Under the pieces are notes generated by a model. It saw only the letters and a list, made by a program, of their open reading frames with translations, ran no database searches and was not told where the DNA came from. This document shows, piece after piece, positions 24,656 through 37,152 of a DNA stretch of 64,000 nt (the stretch's first letter is position 1; every line of letters starts with the position of its first letter). This stretch comes from a virus. Where the stretch lies: IMG/VR virus record IMGVR_UViG_3300042894_005670. The stretch is one strand, 5' to 3'. Both the position numbers and the translations under genes were made by a program.

Positions 24656-26845
24656 TTATGATGAGCCAAAAAACTTATTCATCAAAGCTTTTTGTTTTTT
24701 AGGTTTTGCCCCAAGTACAGGACTAATATTAGCCACCTTATCAGTGCCACTTAAGTATTTTGGGTTACGCTTGTCCTCTTTAGTATAACGTGGGTCTTTA
24801 GGGTCATACTCAGTACCAAATGCACTCTTAACTTGTGACGAATTGAATATGATATAAGACATATCTATATAGTCAGCTTGTTTTTGCAAATACTGATGCG
24901 CTTCTTGTTCAGCTTCTTCAGGTGTATCGCCTTCACCAATAGGTAAAGTAGGCATAACATTATCAGGTAAATATGCTACGTATTTTGATCCTTCTTTTTT
25001 AATCGTAAAATTAATGCGCTCATCAGGTCGCAATGTTCGCTTACCTTCATTAGTATTACGATATTGTATACCATCATATCCCGCATCAAACAATGAACGT
25101 GCTAATTCAGCATAGATTGTTGCTTTACAGTCATCCCAATCCATATCACGATCCCTACGAATTGCTTCAAGTTCGTTATATTCTTTTTGGTTAATAATCT
25201 TTTTCTTAAATAAAAAATTCATAACTTGACGTAAATGCTCTTCATCAGGACCAAATATGTCAGGCATAGTAAAAGGGTTTGTAATCTTTAAAAATACAGG
25301 AATTACACGTGCTCCACTATATTTGGCAAACTCATTAGCTGCTTCACGATTGCCAAAATGTATACCAAAATCACGATATAAATTTTTAAACGTTGAAAAA
25401 TCATTAGATGTACCATGATAAACAATCATAGGAGCACCATTACTATCAACTACTTTACTATTGCCAAACCATGCTCTTAAATTTTCCTCACGACCTTCTA
25501 CTAATTCTTTTAAAAAACTCATGGACTCTTTGTTGATATTAGGATTAGTTGGGTCAAATGTACCATCATTGTAAACGGATTTGATTTGCTCAGGGCGTAA
25601 TGCTATGTACCACGTTTTGGTTCTGCCTTTTATAACGAAGCCATCATTACCGTTTTCTGTAGCCTTTTTAAGAAGATTACGCACTTGGACGTATCCCTTA
25701 CTAGAATTAGACATTGACACCCATTTGTCCACGGATATAGAAAGCGGATTTTTAATAGATAAGAAAACGGGGATGATGTTGGCACCTTCTTGTTGAGCAT
25801 ACCCGCCAGCATCCGAGGCTGACGTTGAGAAAAAGATGCCTAGATAATCAGTTGCATTTGGCACACTGCTGCCTTTTGGCGCAGACTTGTCAAACGCTGC
25901 AAAGTTTCTGAGCGTACCGTGATACACCACTAACGGATCGCCTCTTTCATCAACCACCTTACTATTACCAAACCACTTATTAAAATTATTTTTTCTATCA
26001 TTACTATCTTCTTTAGTAATGTCAGGTTCATATTTACCAAATGTACCTACATTATATATAGACTTGATTTGATACTGTTCAAATGGACGATAAGTTAAAA
26101 TAATCGGTGTGCCCTCAGCACCAAGTTCTAACTCTTTTCCATCACGTGGTTCATATTTTTGGGAACCTGCTTCAAAAACATCTTTTAAAATGACACCATC
26201 ATATCCCATACCTTGTAGGTAACTTACAATATCTTCACTATCTGCAATAGTATATGTATCTATAACCGTATTGTCTAGTGCATCCTCAATAGAACTAATA
26301 TCGTCTGCTTCACCCCATGTGTCAATTTGATCTGAAAGGTCACGAAATCCTTTTATTCTAAAACCATCATCGTCATAAGCATTGATTGAAAATCTTGCGC
26401 CTGTTTTGTATATAATTTCATCTAAATCATATATCATATAGGACACATCTCTCCAACCTAATTTTTTACGTCCACCATCAGGTACATTTAGATCACTAGG
26501 CACCGTATTAATAAAATCTATTAATGATATTGTTTCGTTATAACGGGTAAGATCTAATGGTTTAACAATTCGTAAATACGCTGCGATTACAGTAGAACCA
26601 CTACCATATTGTCTTGTGTCTAAATGTCTAGAGTATACACTAGCTGCTGCAGGGTCATTAGTAAAAGATGGTACTGCACGACCTTGAGTTAATTTAAATT
26701 CTGTGGCAGCAGGTCGCTTACGTGTACCACGATATACAACAAGTGGGTTGCCATTACTATCAACCACTTTACTATTACCAAACCAACTACGAAATGCTTT
26801 TGTCTCTCTAGCTTTTTGGTATTCTAATAATTGTCCAATTTTCAT
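24656..26845 (-). CDS. Three tandem ART-PolyVal-like ADP-ribosyltransferase domains
   Basis: WFGNSKVVD..G.P..VY(H/R)GT...L.I..P...G.DG...Q(I/V)KS repeated three times. Confidence 0.8.
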   Translation of the reverse strand: MKIGQLLEYQKARETKAFRSWFGNSKVVDSNGNPLVVYRGTRKRPAATEFKLTQGRAVPSFTNDPAAASVYSRHLDTRQYGSGSTVIAAYLRIVKPLDLTRYNETISLIDFINTVPSDLNVPDGGRKKLGWRDVSYMIYDLDEIIYKTGARFSINAYDDDGFRIKGFRDLSDQIDTWGEADDISSIEDALDNTVIDTYTIADSEDIVSYLQGMGYDGVILKDVFEAGSQKYEPRDGKELELGAEGTPIILTYRPFEQYQIKSIYNVGTFGKYEPDITKEDSNDRKNNFNKWFGNSKVVDERGDPLVVYHGTLRNFAAFDKSAPKGSSVPNATDYLGIFFSTSASDAGGYAQQEGANIIPVFLSIKNPLSISVDKWVSMSNSSKGYVQVRNLLKKATENGNDGFVIKGRTKTWYIALRPEQIKSVYNDGTFDPTNPNINKESMSFLKELVEGREENLRAWFGNSKVVDSNGAPMIVYHGTSNDFSTFKNLYRDFGIHFGNREAANEFAKYSGARVIPVFLKITNPFTMPDIFGPDEEHLRQVMNFLFKKKIINQKEYNELEAIRRDRDMDWDDCKATIYAELARSLFDAGYDGIQYRNTNEGKRTLRPDERINFTIKKEGSKYVAYLPDNVMPTLPIGEGDTPEEAEQEAHQYLQKQADYIDMSYIIFNSSQVKSAFGTEYDPKDPRYTKEDKRNPKYLSGTDKVANISPVLGAKPKKQKALMNKFFGSS

Positions 26846-27282
26846 CCACGGTCTTTTTTCAATATGCTACGAAGCATCCATGAATGTTTTGCGTGACTAT
26901 CAATACGTCCTGCTATAAAATCAGCAATACCTTGCTCATCTTCTGCTTCACATTGATGGAATGTTTCTTTTAATAATACAATAATCTTTTGATTATCTTC
27001 GTACAATTCTGCCATCATTAACTCAGCACGTGGTATTTGTTGTTGCTCATCAATAATACTTAACTCTTGATACCTCGTCATGGATCCTGGTGCATATGAG
27101 TCTAACTGTCGAATTATTTCAGCTAGTTGATCAATACTGCCATATACTTCATTATACAAATCACCTAAAAATGCATGATATTGTGGAAAGTTTGGGCCTT
27201 CAATGTTCCAATGAAACCCTGCTGCCTTTATATAAAAAGCAAATGATGTTCCTAACACTTGCTTTAACTTATCTTTTAACAT
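26842..27282 (-). CDS. dps: Dps ferritin-like protein
   Basis: FHWNIEGPNFPQYH, D.LAE.IR, H.KH.WMLRS. Confidence 0.9.
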   Translation of the reverse strand: MLKDKLKQVLGTSFAFYIKAAGFHWNIEGPNFPQYHAFLGDLYNEVYGSIDQLAEIIRQLDSYAPGSMTRYQELSIIDEQQQIPRAELMMAELYEDNQKIIVLLKETFHQCEAEDEQGIADFIAGRIDSHAKHSWMLRSILKKDRG

Positions 27283-29728
27283 TCTTTTTACCTTCTAGCA
27301 TATTCTTTTGTGCTTCGTGACCTTCCATATACTCTGCTACATCTTTTATTAGTTCATCAGCACGTGTAATGTGGTCGGAGACCCATCCTGGCAAGCCTTG
27401 TCCTTCACTTCTACCTTTAATTATCTTAGCAAGTGACATTGAACTTTTTACGGTAGATAATAAACTGTTTACTGCCATTGATACTTCATGGTCAGGTTCC
27501 ATATGCTTAGCTTTAACTACATCACCACGCATACGCATTTTACCAGGCATCACTATGAGGTCTTGTTCACTTAAATCAGCTTCCTTCAATGTGTTAGGTA
27601 TAGCACCCGTATTGTTTAAGAAAAACTGATCTGTTACACCTGCTTTAATTTTTAAATCTCGCACTTGCTCTCTATACTCGTTAATTTCTTCCGCAATAGC
27701 ACGACCTAATATTTGACCAATTTGTTCAGGTGTTGCAGGTACATCAGGTCCTGTACCACCAAATTTTGTATTTACTAACCTAGGGAAGTAATTTCTAACA
27801 ACACTAGCTAAACGATTAACTGTTTCACTCGTTAAAGCTTTGTATTGTTGTATATAATTATCATATGAAATATTGTTAGCTAATGCTTTACCACCTGCGG
27901 CTATCGCTGCACCTGCCGCTGCAGCTTTACCTAAACTTCCTAAAAATCCTCTACGTGCAGGATCAGCTTCATTGATACTTTCTTCATCAGAAAATTTTGC
28001 ATCACGTAATGCATCTTCAAAAATTTCATCTAATCCATAAATTGCACTTTCTAATTCATGCTTGGCTTCATAAACACGGCTATTATGATAATTAAAATCA
28101 TCCATGTCTAATGCATAAGCTTTTACTAAATTTTCAATTTCTACCATAATTTCATTTACGGTATTATCGTATGAAATTCCTTTAGTAATTTTTCTAGCTT
28201 GCATTAAGGCACGTTCCAAATCATCTGCACGACCTTCGTTAATGCTTTCGTTCTTAGATTTATTACCCCAATTCTTTGCACCTGCTTTACGACATTTAAC
28301 TAATGCACCACTAGCATATGCACTAGGCCAAATTTTGTAACGACTTTTTACCTTATGGTAGCATGCATCTTTTTTACCTTCAGTAAATAATGCTTCACTG
28401 ACCATTTCACCATTACATTGTGGGCAAATACCCTCTTTGACATAATACTCAAGACTTTCATTCTTAGTCTTGTTGCTTACCATATCAGCCGCACCTTGAC
28501 GTTGTGGGTTTGGATCTTCACGGCGTTTTTTACGTACTGCTGCTGCAATAGCTTTTTTACCACCACTAGCACGTAATGATGCTGCTTTTTCTTTACTTAG
28601 GCATTTTGGTTTACCTTCACCTGCTTTACGTTCTCCACACTTACCAATACGCTCACCTTTAGTATTGTAGCGATCCCATCCACCGCCACCTGCACCACCT
28701 TCACCGCCTTTACCAAACCATGCACGTAAATCTTCGCTTAATTGTTCAGCAATTTCACTTTCACTGAATTCTTTGCCAACTAGTTTATCACCTGTAACAC
28801 CTTGAATTAGTGCCCATGCACGTTGAAATTCTTTTTCTTTAATTAATTGATTTAGGATTTGTTTTTGACGTGGATCTGCCATTTTAAAGAATTTAACCAT
28901 TTCCATTGCACCGATATTACCTTCATAACCTAGTTCCATCAATGCTTCTTCATTAGTATGAGATTGGTATTCATCATAATCCATATACATATCGGTATCA
29001 CGATCATAATACTTACCTTCTTTAGGATCGTAATAAACAATCTTACCTGATTTTAAACGAAATGGTCCTTCTAACCCTTGGTCTGACATATCTGTATAAC
29101 GTTCTTTATCAATTGGAGTTGATATTTTCCAACCTTCCGCCACACCTTGCGTCTCTGGACCATCCATCCAACTCTGCGTTAGTTTAATCATATCTAACGG
29201 AATGCGTTTTTTATCGTGAATTTCCATTGCCTTCAATCTTGCGGATTCTTGTGATGGGAACGGAATGGCATCAAACTTCTTATCTCTAAGAACTTTACCT
29301 TTAACTCTTACATACCAGTTTTCAGAGCCTTCCGCCACACCTTCTTTCCTAATACCAAGTGTACTCGCAGGATTACCTCCACCAAACATACTAGCAAATG
29401 CATCACTTGCTTGTTGTTTAGTATCTGCTTTTTGTTGTTTTTTTACTGATTTTTTACTCGTAACCTTTTTAAGCATTGTTTTAAACTTATCACCATCCGT
29501 TGTTGGATTAGTAGCTTCTGCCACCGTCTTTTTCTTTTTGCTACCTGCCCAATTACCCCACTCTGAAGCACTGCGCTCTACACTATTCATGTATTTTTTA
29601 CCACTATCTGCAGTCTCATCCGTTTTTTCACGTTTTACTGTTTCTTTGAATAATGGTGTGGCAACAGTAGCAACTGAACCTGCTGTCATTTCATTAATTT
29701 TATCTAAGGTTTTACGAATATCTGACAT
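27269..29728 (-). CDS. Modular virion-internal polyprotein (about 10 modules joined by hydrophobic-x-E motifs)
   Basis: INE|M, VAE|A, GVAE|G twice, LME|L, LSE|D, FTE|G, INE|G, INE|A, LKE|A separating unrelated segments; TAAATA upstream. Confidence 0.65.
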   Translation of the reverse strand: MSDIRKTLDKINEMTAGSVATVATPLFKETVKREKTDETADSGKKYMNSVERSASEWGNWAGSKKKKTVAEATNPTTDGDKFKTMLKKVTSKKSVKKQQKADTKQQASDAFASMFGGGNPASTLGIRKEGVAEGSENWYVRVKGKVLRDKKFDAIPFPSQESARLKAMEIHDKKRIPLDMIKLTQSWMDGPETQGVAEGWKISTPIDKERYTDMSDQGLEGPFRLKSGKIVYYDPKEGKYYDRDTDMYMDYDEYQSHTNEEALMELGYEGNIGAMEMVKFFKMADPRQKQILNQLIKEKEFQRAWALIQGVTGDKLVGKEFSESEIAEQLSEDLRAWFGKGGEGGAGGGGWDRYNTKGERIGKCGERKAGEGKPKCLSKEKAASLRASGGKKAIAAAVRKKRREDPNPQRQGAADMVSNKTKNESLEYYVKEGICPQCNGEMVSEALFTEGKKDACYHKVKSRYKIWPSAYASGALVKCRKAGAKNWGNKSKNESINEGRADDLERALMQARKITKGISYDNTVNEIMVEIENLVKAYALDMDDFNYHNSRVYEAKHELESAIYGLDEIFEDALRDAKFSDEESINEADPARRGFLGSLGKAAAAGAAIAAGGKALANNISYDNYIQQYKALTSETVNRLASVVRNYFPRLVNTKFGGTGPDVPATPEQIGQILGRAIAEEINEYREQVRDLKIKAGVTDQFFLNNTGAIPNTLKEADLSEQDLIVMPGKMRMRGDVVKAKHMEPDHEVSMAVNSLLSTVKSSMSLAKIIKGRSEGQGLPGWVSDHITRADELIKDVAEYMEGHEAQKNMLEGKKNVKR
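29133..29343. repeat. Exact 16-bp direct repeat CCTTCCGCCACACCTT (encodes GVAEG on the minus strand) flanking a 65-codon module
   Basis: 29133-29148 and 29328-29343, 195 nt apart. Confidence 0.9.
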
Positions 29729-29772
29729 GATGGAATTCCATAATATCTAGTATTTATTCGCTATGAATTAAT

Positions 29773-32999: not shown

Positions 33000-33683
33000 T
33001 TATGCTACTTCAGGAGGTTTTTGTATTGAGTATTCCTTTTTAATACATTCATGAAAAGTCATATAAAACAATGATTGCATATGCTCATCGTCATAATCAA
33101 AAAATAAATCTCCACCAATCCATCGACCATTTTTATTATTTGCATCCCAATGCATATAAAAATTAAAATTAGGAGATGGGAAAAAATGTTTTTTATACTT
33201 TGTAAAAAAATCACGTAATTCAATTAATTCGGTATGAGAATACACCCTTGACTTTAAATAGATACGAAAATTATGCTTTGGGTTTTTATGATATATAATT
33301 TCTTTAGGTCTTGAAAAATTTACAAGTACTTCTTCAACAGTGTTAGGTTGACCTAAAATTTTAGCTAAATCTTCTATAATATCATAGCGTGTTGAATATA
33401 CAGTAATACTATTAACATGTTTTAATGTTTTAATATAATCATCATTTGCTGATTTCCATATAAGAAATTTCTTAATTTCAATTAAGTTTTTAACATAAGC
33501 TTCACGAAGATTAGAACGAAGTAATTCGCTTTGTATTATTTCTAAATCATAATTTCTATGGATACCAATTTGCTTAAGGTCAAAACAAACTTTATATTTG
33601 TACTTGTCATACCATAACCAATGTTGATTTACATTAGGTTGCAGTGTTGTATAGCTAAATCCTGATAATACCATCTGTTCCAA
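33000..33683 (-). CDS. Hypothetical protein
   Basis: 227-aa ORF. Confidence 0.6.
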   Translation of the reverse strand: MEQMVLSGFSYTTLQPNVNQHWLWYDKYKYKVCFDLKQIGIHRNYDLEIIQSELLRSNLREAYVKNLIEIKKFLIWKSANDDYIKTLKHVNSITVYSTRYDIIEDLAKILGQPNTVEEVLVNFSRPKEIIYHKNPKHNFRIYLKSRVYSHTELIELRDFFTKYKKHFFPSPNFNFYMHWDANNKNGRWIGGDLFFDYDDEHMQSLFYMTFHECIKKEYSIQKPPEVA

Positions 33684-35931
33684 TTACCTCATCCTTATCA
33701 ATTGTTTTTTCTGCTGTAAAATTAATTTCATCTCCGTTTAGTATAACGTGAACATTAGAATCTTTTAATTTTTCAAATAAAATCTTTTTACTTAACGGTA
33801 CTCTGATAAGTTCATCAATCTTACGAGCAAGTGGACGTGCACCCATTTTATCGTCATAACCAACTTTAGCTAAGTGCTCAACTGCTTGCTCACTAATCGT
33901 TAAATTAATCTTGTGCTGTTTAAGTAATTGTGCTTTTAACTCATTAACAAATTTAATAACAATTTTCTTAATGGCTAACATGTCTAACTTACTAAACTTA
34001 CATACTAAATCAATACGATTACGCAGTTCAGGTTTGAAAAACTCTTTAAATGCTCGGTCATCTTCACCTACTTTTTGTGTTGACCCAAAACCAATGTTTG
34101 ATTTTTCACTATCTCTAGCACCTAAATTACTAGTCATAATAATGATTGTGTTTTTAGCATCTACCGTTTTACCATTAGTGCTAGATATTCTACCCTCATC
34201 CAATAATTGTAAGAATAAGTTATACACATCAGGGTGTGCTTTTTCAACCTCATCAAACAATAATATAGCGTATGGGTTTTTACTTAGATCATTGATAATT
34301 TTTCCACCACCAAGATTACCTTCACCATAGCCGACATAGCCTGGGGGCGCACCAATCAAAGCAGCTACGCTATGTTTTTCTTGATATTCACTCATATCAT
34401 AACGTAGCAATGGCATGCTTAAATGTTCGCTTAATAATCGAGCAGTTTCAGTCTTACCGCTGCCTGTTGGTCCTAAGAATAAGAAACTTGCCATAGGTTT
34501 CTTTTCATTAGAAATACCCGCAAAGCTAACATATATTCTATCTAAAATTTTCTCTAATGTAGCATCTTGCCCATAGAGTTTTTGTTTAATATTTTGATCT
34601 AAGTTAGTCATTTTTTCTGATGAATCATTAGTAAGTTTGTCCGCAGAAACGTTACACATTCTAGTGACTTGTTCTTTAATACTATTTTCATCAATAATTG
34701 CACCAACATTGTTTGCAGCACGTTGTTTAGCACATGCTGCATCGAGTAAATCAATGGACTTATCAGGATTTTTTCTATCATGAATATATCTTGCGCTCAT
34801 AGTGACTGCCTCAGTAATAGCATTAGGCATAATTTTTACACCATGAAATGACTCAAGACGTTCACTTAATCCTGTCAAAATGTCAATAGTAGTTGCATTT
34901 GTTGGCTCATCAATAGAAACACGGTAAAATCGACGCATTAAAGCACGATCTTTTTCAAATGATTCGTAGTATTCTTCCCACGTGGTACTAGCAATTACCT
35001 TCAAGTTACCTTTTGTAATTGCAGGTTTAATCATATTGGCAAAGTCTACACTGCCACCACTACCATTTCCACTACCACGCATAGTGTGTGCTTCATCTAT
35101 GAATAAGATAGCTTTAGGTTTGGTTGCTAATGCTTCTAAAACGTGTTTAACTTTTTCCTCAAAATCACCACGATACTTACTACCTGCAAGTAGTGATCCA
35201 ATTTCTAATGAATATACTTCATGGTCAAACAAAAATGGTGGTACATTTTTGTCAAGAATTTTTTGTGCTAAACCTTCAGCAAGGACGGTTTTTCCAACGC
35301 CTGGGTCGCCAACAAGTAATACATTAGATTTGAAACGTTTAGCTAATACATTGACAATATCATTAACTTCACTTTCACGCCCAATCAATGGCTCAATTTT
35401 ATTACGTTTGGCTAACTCAGTTAAACTAATCGTAAACTCATCTAATACTTCATTAGCTTGTTGCTCAGTCATTTTTCCACTCTTACTACTTTTGTGTGCT
35501 TTATTCCAATAAGCAATAAATTCATTCCGTGTTACGCCCCATTTCAATAAGAAATAATGTGCATGGCTGTTAGTTTCCTGTAAAATTGAAATATATATGT
35601 CTATTAGTTCAATTTGTCTGCGTCCTGTGAATAATACTTGTGTTACTGCACGATTAAAAACACGCTCAAGTGAATGAGTTTTCTTTGGTGCTACAGGAGT
35701 ACCATCTTCATTTGGAGACACTTTTAAATTATTGACTGAATCTAAATATTCATCAACTTCTTGAATAAGTTGTACTGTATCGACACCAAATTCATCTAGA
35801 TGTTCCCTAAATGATTCAAAGGTAATCAAACTTAACAAAGCATGTTCTAATGTTACATAACCATGATATCTGCTTTTTGCAATCTCAATGGCATGCTCAA
35901 TTAATTTTTCAATTTCAGGGTTGTTTATCAT
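33655..35931 (-). CDS. clpA: ClpA-type Hsp100 ATPase
   Basis: Clp N domain, GDPGVGKT, GSKYRGDFE, FIDEAH, GPTGSGKT, GAPPGYVGY, FDEVEKAH, IGF loop, GARPL. Confidence 0.93.
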   Translation of the reverse strand: MINNPEIEKLIEHAIEIAKSRYHGYVTLEHALLSLITFESFREHLDEFGVDTVQLIQEVDEYLDSVNNLKVSPNEDGTPVAPKKTHSLERVFNRAVTQVLFTGRRQIELIDIYISILQETNSHAHYFLLKWGVTRNEFIAYWNKAHKSSKSGKMTEQQANEVLDEFTISLTELAKRNKIEPLIGRESEVNDIVNVLAKRFKSNVLLVGDPGVGKTVLAEGLAQKILDKNVPPFLFDHEVYSLEIGSLLAGSKYRGDFEEKVKHVLEALATKPKAILFIDEAHTMRGSGNGSGGSVDFANMIKPAITKGNLKVIASTTWEEYYESFEKDRALMRRFYRVSIDEPTNATTIDILTGLSERLESFHGVKIMPNAITEAVTMSARYIHDRKNPDKSIDLLDAACAKQRAANNVGAIIDENSIKEQVTRMCNVSADKLTNDSSEKMTNLDQNIKQKLYGQDATLEKILDRIYVSFAGISNEKKPMASFLFLGPTGSGKTETARLLSEHLSMPLLRYDMSEYQEKHSVAALIGAPPGYVGYGEGNLGGGKIINDLSKNPYAILLFDEVEKAHPDVYNLFLQLLDEGRISSTNGKTVDAKNTIIIMTSNLGARDSEKSNIGFGSTQKVGEDDRAFKEFFKPELRNRIDLVCKFSKLDMLAIKKIVIKFVNELKAQLLKQHKINLTISEQAVEHLAKVGYDDKMGARPLARKIDELIRVPLSKKILFEKLKDSNVHVILNGDEINFTAEKTIDKDEVIGTDGIIRI

Positions 35932-36361
35932 ATTGTTTTTCCAATTTTCTATCCATCATAGTAATACCATCTAAATGATCCACTTCATGTTGTATAACAC
36001 GTGCTTCTAACCCACTAAATGTTTCAACAAACATGTTACCATTTGCGTCATTGTAAGATAGCACAATAGTTTCAGGTCTGTCAAGTTCCACTGATTCATT
36101 AGGATAGCTTAAACATCCTTCAAGATAAGGTGTACTACCTTGTGCATCTTGAATCATAGGATTAAAAAAAGCTTTTTCATTATTATCTACTGCCATAACA
36201 AAAACCCTACTGCGTAATCCAACTTGATTAGCAGCAAGTCCAATACCACCACTTTCATGCATAAATTTTAACAACTGCTTAGCTAATAATTCGTTTTGTA
36301 TGGGGTATTTGAAATCAACAGGTTTAGTTTTTTGATATAATGTTCTTTTAGTTAGCTTCAT
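35915..36361 (-). CDS. def: Peptide deformylase
   Basis: [24 protein letters not shown]. Confidence 0.95.
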
Positions 36362-37152
36362 TTCGTATTTAATACACGTTCTTGCTCTAAAACTCTGATT
36401 AAATTGTCACTTATTTCTTCAGGCATAATGGGTCTAAGTATAACATACTGATCACCCAATCCAAAATTATTGGATAAACCATGACCACCTAACCTTAATG
36501 TTGCATTAGGTTTAGCTCTTGGTTGTATGCTGATTTCTAGTTCTTTACCATATATCGTTGGTACGATAATTAACGAACCTATGACTAAGTCAAAAATACT
36601 TATATCATAATTAAAATATAAATCTAACCCACGCCTTTCAAACAAAGGATGCCTATGTTGTCTATAAGTAACTTGAAGTGGTCCATCAGGCATTAACCCT
36701 TCATACTTAACAACACCACCATCGTCAATACCTTTTGGTATTTTCACTTCAAATAATTTCATACCTTGTGGTGTATTAATTTGCAAATTATGTTTATCAC
36801 CTGTGGCTATTTGTTCTAAAGTGACAAATACTGTAGCGGTATATACTCGCTGCTGCGGTGGTGCATGTGGATGCCTAAAGAATTGCCCAAAAATATCATG
36901 GATATTTTGTCCGAAATGAAACTCAAAACCACCTTGTTGTGGATTAAACCCATTAAATTGTGGTTGAGGATTGTCATAAACAGCACGTTTTTGTGGGTCA
37001 CTTAACGTGTCGTATGCTGCTTGTATAGTTTGAAAACGTGCAGTATCACCACCTCTGTCAGGATGGTGTTGACTTGCTAACTTACGATATGCTTTTTTAA
37101 TTTCATCAGGAGTAGCATTTTTTGCTACTCCTAACGTCTGATAATGATTCAT
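36358..37152 (-). CDS. dnaJ: DnaJ-class co-chaperone (type II, no Zn finger)
   Basis: J domain with HPD, G/F-rich linker, DnaJ C-terminal domain. Confidence 0.9.

Follow-up and report, generated by a model that had tools for sequence, protein, structure and literature searches.

We analysed a 64,000-nucleotide stretch of viral DNA (the window) from IMG/VR record IMGVR_UViG_3300042894_005670, a virus contig of 73.7 kb with a G+C content of 34.6% and an estimated completeness of 21%. On its reverse strand lies an open reading frame (ORF), P0001, for a modular polyprotein in which a signal resembling those of the twin-arginine translocation (Tat) pathway is buried far from the N-terminus, directly behind a site of the type cut by prohead proteases. 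The features that matter first are these:

27269–29728, reverse strand: P0001, modular polyprotein ORF of 819 amino acids (aa), stop codon included (ORF reading and ortholog alignment)
27968–27976, reverse strand: I-N-E, residues 585–587, prohead-protease-type site directly before the signal (translation)
27878–27967, reverse strand: Tat-like signal ADPARRGFLGSLGKAAAAGAAIAAGGKALA, residues 588–617, with RRGFL at 27941–27955 and ALA at 27878–27886

Tat signals consist of (S/T)RRxFLK, an h-region and an AxA site, and act at the N-termini of folded proteins. An earlier, sequence-only reading of this DNA had described an RRxFL motif with an Ala/Gly h-region, a basic residue and an AxA site after INE|, nearly 590 residues into the protein and followed by a domain of about 100 aa. 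Translation and coordinates agree with this description throughout: the reverse strand of 27878–27976 translates to INEADPARRGFLGSLGKAAAAGAAIAAGGKALA, residues 585–617, with the arginines at 592–593, a lysine at 614 and ALA at 615–617, and behind it lie the domain of about 100 aa (residues 618–721) and a final module of 98 aa. The twin-arginine core is present as RRGFL (residues 592–596), with glycine replacing the lysine at +5 and a lysine at +8. As translated, the signal starts at residue 588 of 819 and so is not N-terminal; it would become N-terminal only through a cut at INE|A. Over about 50 codons upstream, this frame contains no ATG, GTG or TTG; that excludes a nested gene in the window and was the ground for rejecting an internal translation start.

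The signal is followed by the junction KALA|NN, and its Ala/Gly h-region is weak, with a maximum 19-residue Kyte–Doolittle mean of 1.19 (0.87–1.32 across family signals), against a threshold of usually 1.6 for a membrane helix. Its hydrophobicity and length are insufficient for a membrane anchor. The roughly 590 residues ahead of it are hydrophilic, and P0001, including this upstream part, is absent from the list of uncharged runs of at least 16 residues, so there is no Sec-type transmembrane helix anywhere in the protein. In the AF2 model, the signal is disordered or weakly helical (predicted local distance difference test score, pLDDT, <50). It is the only motif of its kind in a real coding frame among the six frames of the 73.7-kb contig, and the NCBIfam model TIGR02811, of a Tat-target family, matches residues 587–618 (E=1.6e-5).

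Conservation of the buried signal

Twenty-five distinct signals were pooled from protein searches, from the syntenic locus and from an IUPAC-pattern scan of IMG/VR for EADxxRRGFLxG, which returned 12 loci, 10 of them real and 2 chance matches in short ORFs. All 25 are internal, lying between residues 39 and 790 of their proteins, and every one is preceded by (V/I)xE, with an n-region of 3–4 residues. RRGFL is invariant in 25/25 distinct copies, so the sequence-only reading does not fall for want of conserved arginines, and its suggestion that RRxFL might follow Glu sites in related polyproteins holds for each copy. Behind the h-region, most of the copies listed have a readable AxA-type site, with small residues at −3 and −1; this was judged by eye and is untallied.

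When 15 family proteins were aligned, at a mean column identity of only 19%, eight columns were invariant: the start Met, D589, R592, R593, G594, F595, L596 and G600. Seven of the eight fall within the signal and all 25 copies are internal behind (V/I)xE, so the signal is not a chance occurrence. Curated models recognize it in the relatives: TIGR01409 and TIGR02811 match all 15 proteins (best E 3.2e-6 and 7.7e-10, respectively), Pfam TAT_signal (PF10518) matches 9 of the 15 (E down to 1.2e-4), and the textbook form RRGFLKGLGAAA...AQA is found in many relatives.

The same signal recurs ahead of different cargos. At least eight unrelated cargos follow it, one of them Gly/His-rich, and one protein carries two signals. 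Polyproteins in similar settings (with ClpB, DnaJ, ferritin or GP88 nearby) have other cargos behind the same signal, and a distant syntenic ortholog (L008; ClpB ... polyprotein–ferritin) retains VDE|ADMSRRGFLG. Separately, the Gly/His-rich low-complexity cargo (GGGGGGGHGGGGGH...) behind the buried signal in two IMG/VR contigs (L015 and L023) may bind metal.

Cassette polymorphism and the cargo

Signal and cargo together form a cassette that comes and goes among close relatives:

27566–27967, reverse strand: whole cassette, residues 588–721, absent, present or allelic among near-identical orthologs
27566–27877, reverse strand: cargo domain and C-terminal linker ending LSE, residues 618–721, modelled as a two-helix hairpin

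Orthologs that are 94–96% identical in nucleotides (nt) over the backbone differ at the cassette. It is absent in some (L003 ORF, P0007), which read ...EEGLNE|QDLIVMPG...; allele A is carried by the window, P0157 and P0158, and allele B by L001, L002, P0160 and P0161. Between the alleles, the signal is 93% identical in nt and 96% in aa, with six synonymous and one or two replacement changes, whereas the cargo is only 56% identical in nt and 36% in aa. The breakpoint therefore lies directly after the signal, leaving a constant address and a swappable domain. Judged by these comparisons, the signal is under purifying selection, and it is kept across phages whose family-B DNA polymerases (PolB) are 61% identical, ahead of many cargos. 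The polymorphism, from absence to alleles A and B on an otherwise near-identical backbone, would mark the cargo as a fast-evolving host-interaction module. A 9-nt repeat, GAAGCTGAT, is found at either end of the cassette; with four copies in the window, it is weak evidence for a junction at the DNA level.

From an alignment of 13 sequences, AF2 models the cargo as a two-helix hairpin (pLDDT 82–93; cassette positions 35–66 and 80–108). Foldseek comparison of the cassette model with the PDB retrieved generic helical hairpins and no match at E<=0.001, and Pfam and PHROG gave no function for the cargo, the DUF7117 match (14–16.7 bits) being below cut-off. A structure search of the ESM Atlas likewise returned generic hairpins, with one LTXXQ/CpxP-like row at TM 0.59, and was set aside as too unspecific to use. 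Protein searches found no bacterial homolog of the cargo.

Polyprotein layout, neighbouring genes and protease

The ends of P0001 and its upstream region carry three further features:

29690–29728, reverse strand: N-terminal leader MSDIRKTLDKINE, resembling the T4 capsid-targeting sequence and ending I-x-E (by pattern, not homology)
29751–29758, reverse strand: AATAAATA box, read directly 22 nt upstream of the ATG, T4 late-promoter-like, with a putative promoter function
27272–27565, reverse strand: C-terminal conserved module, residues 722–819, QDLIVMPG...DHEVSMA...LPGWV, hallmark of the family (homolog search)

A leader of about 10 aa that ends in (L/I)xE is present both in P0001, as MSDIRKTLDKINE|, and in the family, as MKIxxIxE|, where the full pattern reads MKIxxIxE|..TAGSIATV. 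Genes next to P0001 begin MKINELLLE and MKIGQLLE. Within P0001, [ILV]xE is found 21 times, against 11.4±3.0 in shuffled sequences (P=0.0025), and the boundaries of insertions and deletions among orthologs coincide with such sites. A second hotspot of module swapping lies at about 29135–29330 of the window (residues ~134–198), flanked by GVAE|G linkers, where orthologs have different or extra modules. The C-terminal module was found in 585 representative proteins at E<=0.001, and most of the 150 listed match P0001 only there. It belongs to no Pfam family and in relatives stands mostly directly behind the MKIxxIxE|TAGSIATV leader. PHROG matches to P0001 are confined to its central modules, and Pfam found no polyvalent-protein domain in it.

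Two observations concern other modules of this family. In P0020 (residue 187), P0030 (residues 329 and 523) and P0137 (residue 238), GVAE|GWK(D/E)K is followed by an Ala/Gly-rich hydrophobic stretch of 17–19 aa, a Lys-type counterpart, Sec-like or glycine-zipper, to the RR signal and likewise placed after a VxE site. Homologs of the central Cys-rich modules (WFGKGG...KCL, SAYASGALVKCRK) occur in T4-like cyanophages (L005, 1636–3810; L011, 2411–3226), in a structural cluster close to the gene for the small terminase subunit, which they precede in P-SSM2 and follow in S-SCSM2R; some of these homologs are annotated as structural proteins.

The PolB of the window is nearest to those of jumbo phages (Sinorhizobium phage Phosso, 50% identity; Agrobacterium phage Atu_ph07, 46%). 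Around P0001 lie genes for a ClpB-like ATPase, a nucleotidyltransferase, a ferritin/Dps-like protein, an ART-PolyVal ADP-ribosyltransferase, a GP88-family protein and a 2OG-Fe oxygenase. The ferritin/Dps-like gene (26842–27282, reverse strand) overlaps the polyprotein stop by 14 nt; the pairing is kept in L008, and the two genes are close together in L009 too. The gene at 24656–26845 (reverse strand), two genes from the polyprotein, encodes a protein of 729 aa that has MKIGQLLE as its leader and includes an ART-PolyVal ADP-ribosyltransferase domain (E=1.4e-58); this protein is likely an analogue of T4 Alt. A ClpB-like double-AAA+ protein (33655–35931, reverse strand) and a protein with a J-domain-looking N-terminus (36358–37152, reverse strand) both adjoin this putative cargo island, and the synteny of ClpB and DnaJ recurs in L008 and L010.

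A protease of the required type is present in the clade. G004, a 345-kb genome that is 99% complete and whose PolB is 61% identical to that of the window, encodes both an S77 (T4 gp21-type) prohead protease and the buried Tat signal, which a six-frame scan of that genome found to be its only credible Tat signal; the S77 protease is also present in Phosso and in one T4-like cyanophage. No TatA or TatC gene was found in the phage records examined, G004 included, so any Tat step would use host machinery.

A possible two-step address and known systems

What the sequences show is how the signal is built and conserved, that it is reused ahead of different cargos, that the cassette is polymorphic and that the clade has a protease; packaging, cleavage, delivery and export are inferred. 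P0001 would be a cargo polyprotein that a T4-related jumbo phage expresses late and packages in its head, and its leader, which resembles a capsid-targeting sequence, would bring it into the prohead. There, the S77 (gp21-type) prohead protease would cleave after the (I/V/L)xE linkers and free the modules, and the cut at INE|A would create a new N-terminus, ADPARRGFLG..., that could serve as a Tat-type signal: four n-region residues come before RRGFL, and a weakly hydrophobic h-region of Ala and Gly, a Lys in the c-region and AxA come after it. Together, signal and helical hairpin would make up a fragment of ~14 kDa that is ejected along with the DNA, enters the next host, is recognized by host TatBC, exported to the periplasm and trimmed by signal peptidase; the cargo would thus be a swappable effector cassette behind a constant signal, acting on a periplasmic target. 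We judge the chances of this account, a head-packaged polyprotein cut at (I/V/L)xE with export of the ejected fragment after unmasking at INE|A, to be evenly balanced. Read more generally, it would be a two-step address code in which a leader loads the head, a protease unmasks the Tat signal and the Tat system of the new host exports a swappable effector cassette; this wider proposal we put forward tentatively, as a little short of an even chance. The sequence-only reading, which held that head maturation would unmask the signal and that a pre-folded injected protein could then be exported by, or jam, the host translocase, is as a whole partly supported.

Several points weigh against export of an ejected fragment. 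The copy in the window is the least canonical of the family: it reaches 8.9–9.7 bits with TIGR01409, below the cut-off of 16.7, has no match to Pfam TAT_signal (PF10518), and has an uncharged run of 12 residues between two lysines, borderline for a Tat h-region. The case for Tat consequently rests on the relatives. Neither an S77 protease nor capsid genes are present on the contig of the window (21% complete), nor on that of a close relative (G001, 39% complete) whose PolB is 88% identical. Motifs of the [ILV]xE type occur within the cargo helix too (residues 680 and 684), close relatives do without the cassette, and the cargo domain is found in P0062 and P0117 without a Tat signal. When 50,697 phage records were searched by tblastn with the cassette and P0010, no cultured phage proved to carry it, and a search for contigs recorded as encoding P0001 gave no result. 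That head cargo is delivered to the cytoplasm is an assumption carried over from T4. T4 internal-protein cargo acts in the cytoplasm, and we know of no T4 internal protein with a secondary export signal.

Other readings of the same anatomy were considered. The signal might act in the producing cell, where the C-terminal part of the uncleaved polyprotein, or of a fragment made by another protease, would be exported or membrane-tethered in the same infection, for example in lysis control or superinfection exclusion. Internal Tat signals do function in dual Sec–Tat membrane proteins (PMC3471235, PMC5449189), packaging of P0001 is only predicted, and dispensability of the cassette fits such a role as well. 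Yet P0001 has about 590 hydrophilic residues and no transmembrane helix ahead of the signal, and action in the producer needs neither the invariant (V/I)xE nor a leader like a capsid-targeting sequence; we regard it as unlikely. To a similar degree we doubt that the stretch is a Tat-independent membrane or oligomerization element, a Gly/Ala ‘zipper’ with a basic cap by which the ejected protein would sit in or perturb the inner membrane. It is Ala/Gly-rich, with small-xxx-small spacing, and the GVAE|GWK(D/E)K members of the family have similar stretches with no RR; an anchor, however, would not require invariant RRGFL or a kept AxA, hydrophobicity of 0.87–1.32 and a 12-residue uncharged run are inadequate for a stable span, and curated Tat models recognize the relatives.

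In many relatives a Met stands at −3 (ADM(N/S)RR), the exact place at which a native Tat precursor would start; this would fit a nested gene with an internal start, or a bacterial Tat substrate that was captured and persists as a functionless relic. The sequence in the window and in its closest relatives is instead ADPARR or ADLARR, the nearest in-frame Met in the window lying about 50 codons upstream; the E-A-D ahead of the Met is kept at the protein level; purifying selection on the signal, its retention at 61% PolB identity before many cargos, and the failure of protein searches to find a bacterial cargo homolog also speak against this pair of readings, which we consider highly improbable. 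Least probable of all is that the signal acts as a decoy, binding the host Tat translocase and jamming it. A decoy would share the anatomy expected for export, so that nothing here separates the two, but it would need neither an AxA processing site nor a diversifying, swappable cargo, and a small helical hairpin is an unlikely plug.

Should the two-step address code be true, virion proteins would have a path through the cytoplasm to the periplasm, and injected phage proteins would not be restricted to the cytoplasm. Effectors could reach the periplasm of a newly infected cell moments after DNA entry, with host Tat alone needed, and could there counter superinfection or envelope defences, or attack the cell wall. 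The signal would, moreover, be a naturally occurring example of a signal peptide that is silent inside its precursor and activated by proteolysis.

The sequence-only reading had known of no described case, and the literature searched contains no description of this layout: internal Tat signals were found there only in dual Sec–Tat membrane proteins, and twin-arginine signals were never linked to capsid-targeting sequences, prohead proteases, internal or ejected phage proteins, or polyvalent proteins. Compared with bacterial Tat signals (TIGR01409, PF10518 and the formate-dehydrogenase-region model TIGR02811), the signal in P0001 shares RRxFL, the Ala/Gly h-region, the basic c-region residue and AxA, but it lies 590 residues inside a phage protein, scores below cut-off and has G at +5 and Lys at +8. 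In dual Sec–Tat membrane proteins, such as the actinobacterial Rieske protein Sco2149, an internal Tat signal follows Sec-inserted helices and is kept as an anchor (PMC3471235, PMC5449189). The signal in P0001 is likewise not at the translated N-terminus; it differs in having a hydrophilic upstream region, a protease-type site before it and AxA after it.

In phages and conjugative elements, polyvalent proteins combine several modules and are thought to be co-delivered with DNA and processed into parts (PMC5512222). P0001 is also multi-module, and an ART-PolyVal domain is encoded in the adjacent gene at 24656–26845, although P0001 itself has no polyvalent-protein Pfam domain; the terms ‘signal peptide’, ‘periplasm’ and ‘transmembrane’ do not occur in the account of Iyer et al. 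2017 (PMC5512222).

In T4, the internal proteins have a capsid-targeting sequence of 10 residues, and cleavage by gp21 takes place after L/I-X-E (PMC9026906, PMC3012670). P0001 resembles IPI, IPII, IPIII and Alt in its short leader ending (I/L)xE, its late-type expression, as suggested by the upstream box, and its post-Glu cleavage motifs; the ADP-ribosyltransferase neighbour parallels Alt, and the variable cargo has the look of an arms race (PMC9026906, PMC3012670). It differs from them in being a string of about ten modules without sequence homology to the T4 internal proteins, and in having a Tat-type signal that would be exposed by an internal cut only. New for the window is the cassette polymorphism, and what would be new here is an injected head cargo with an added export address that a protease unmasks.

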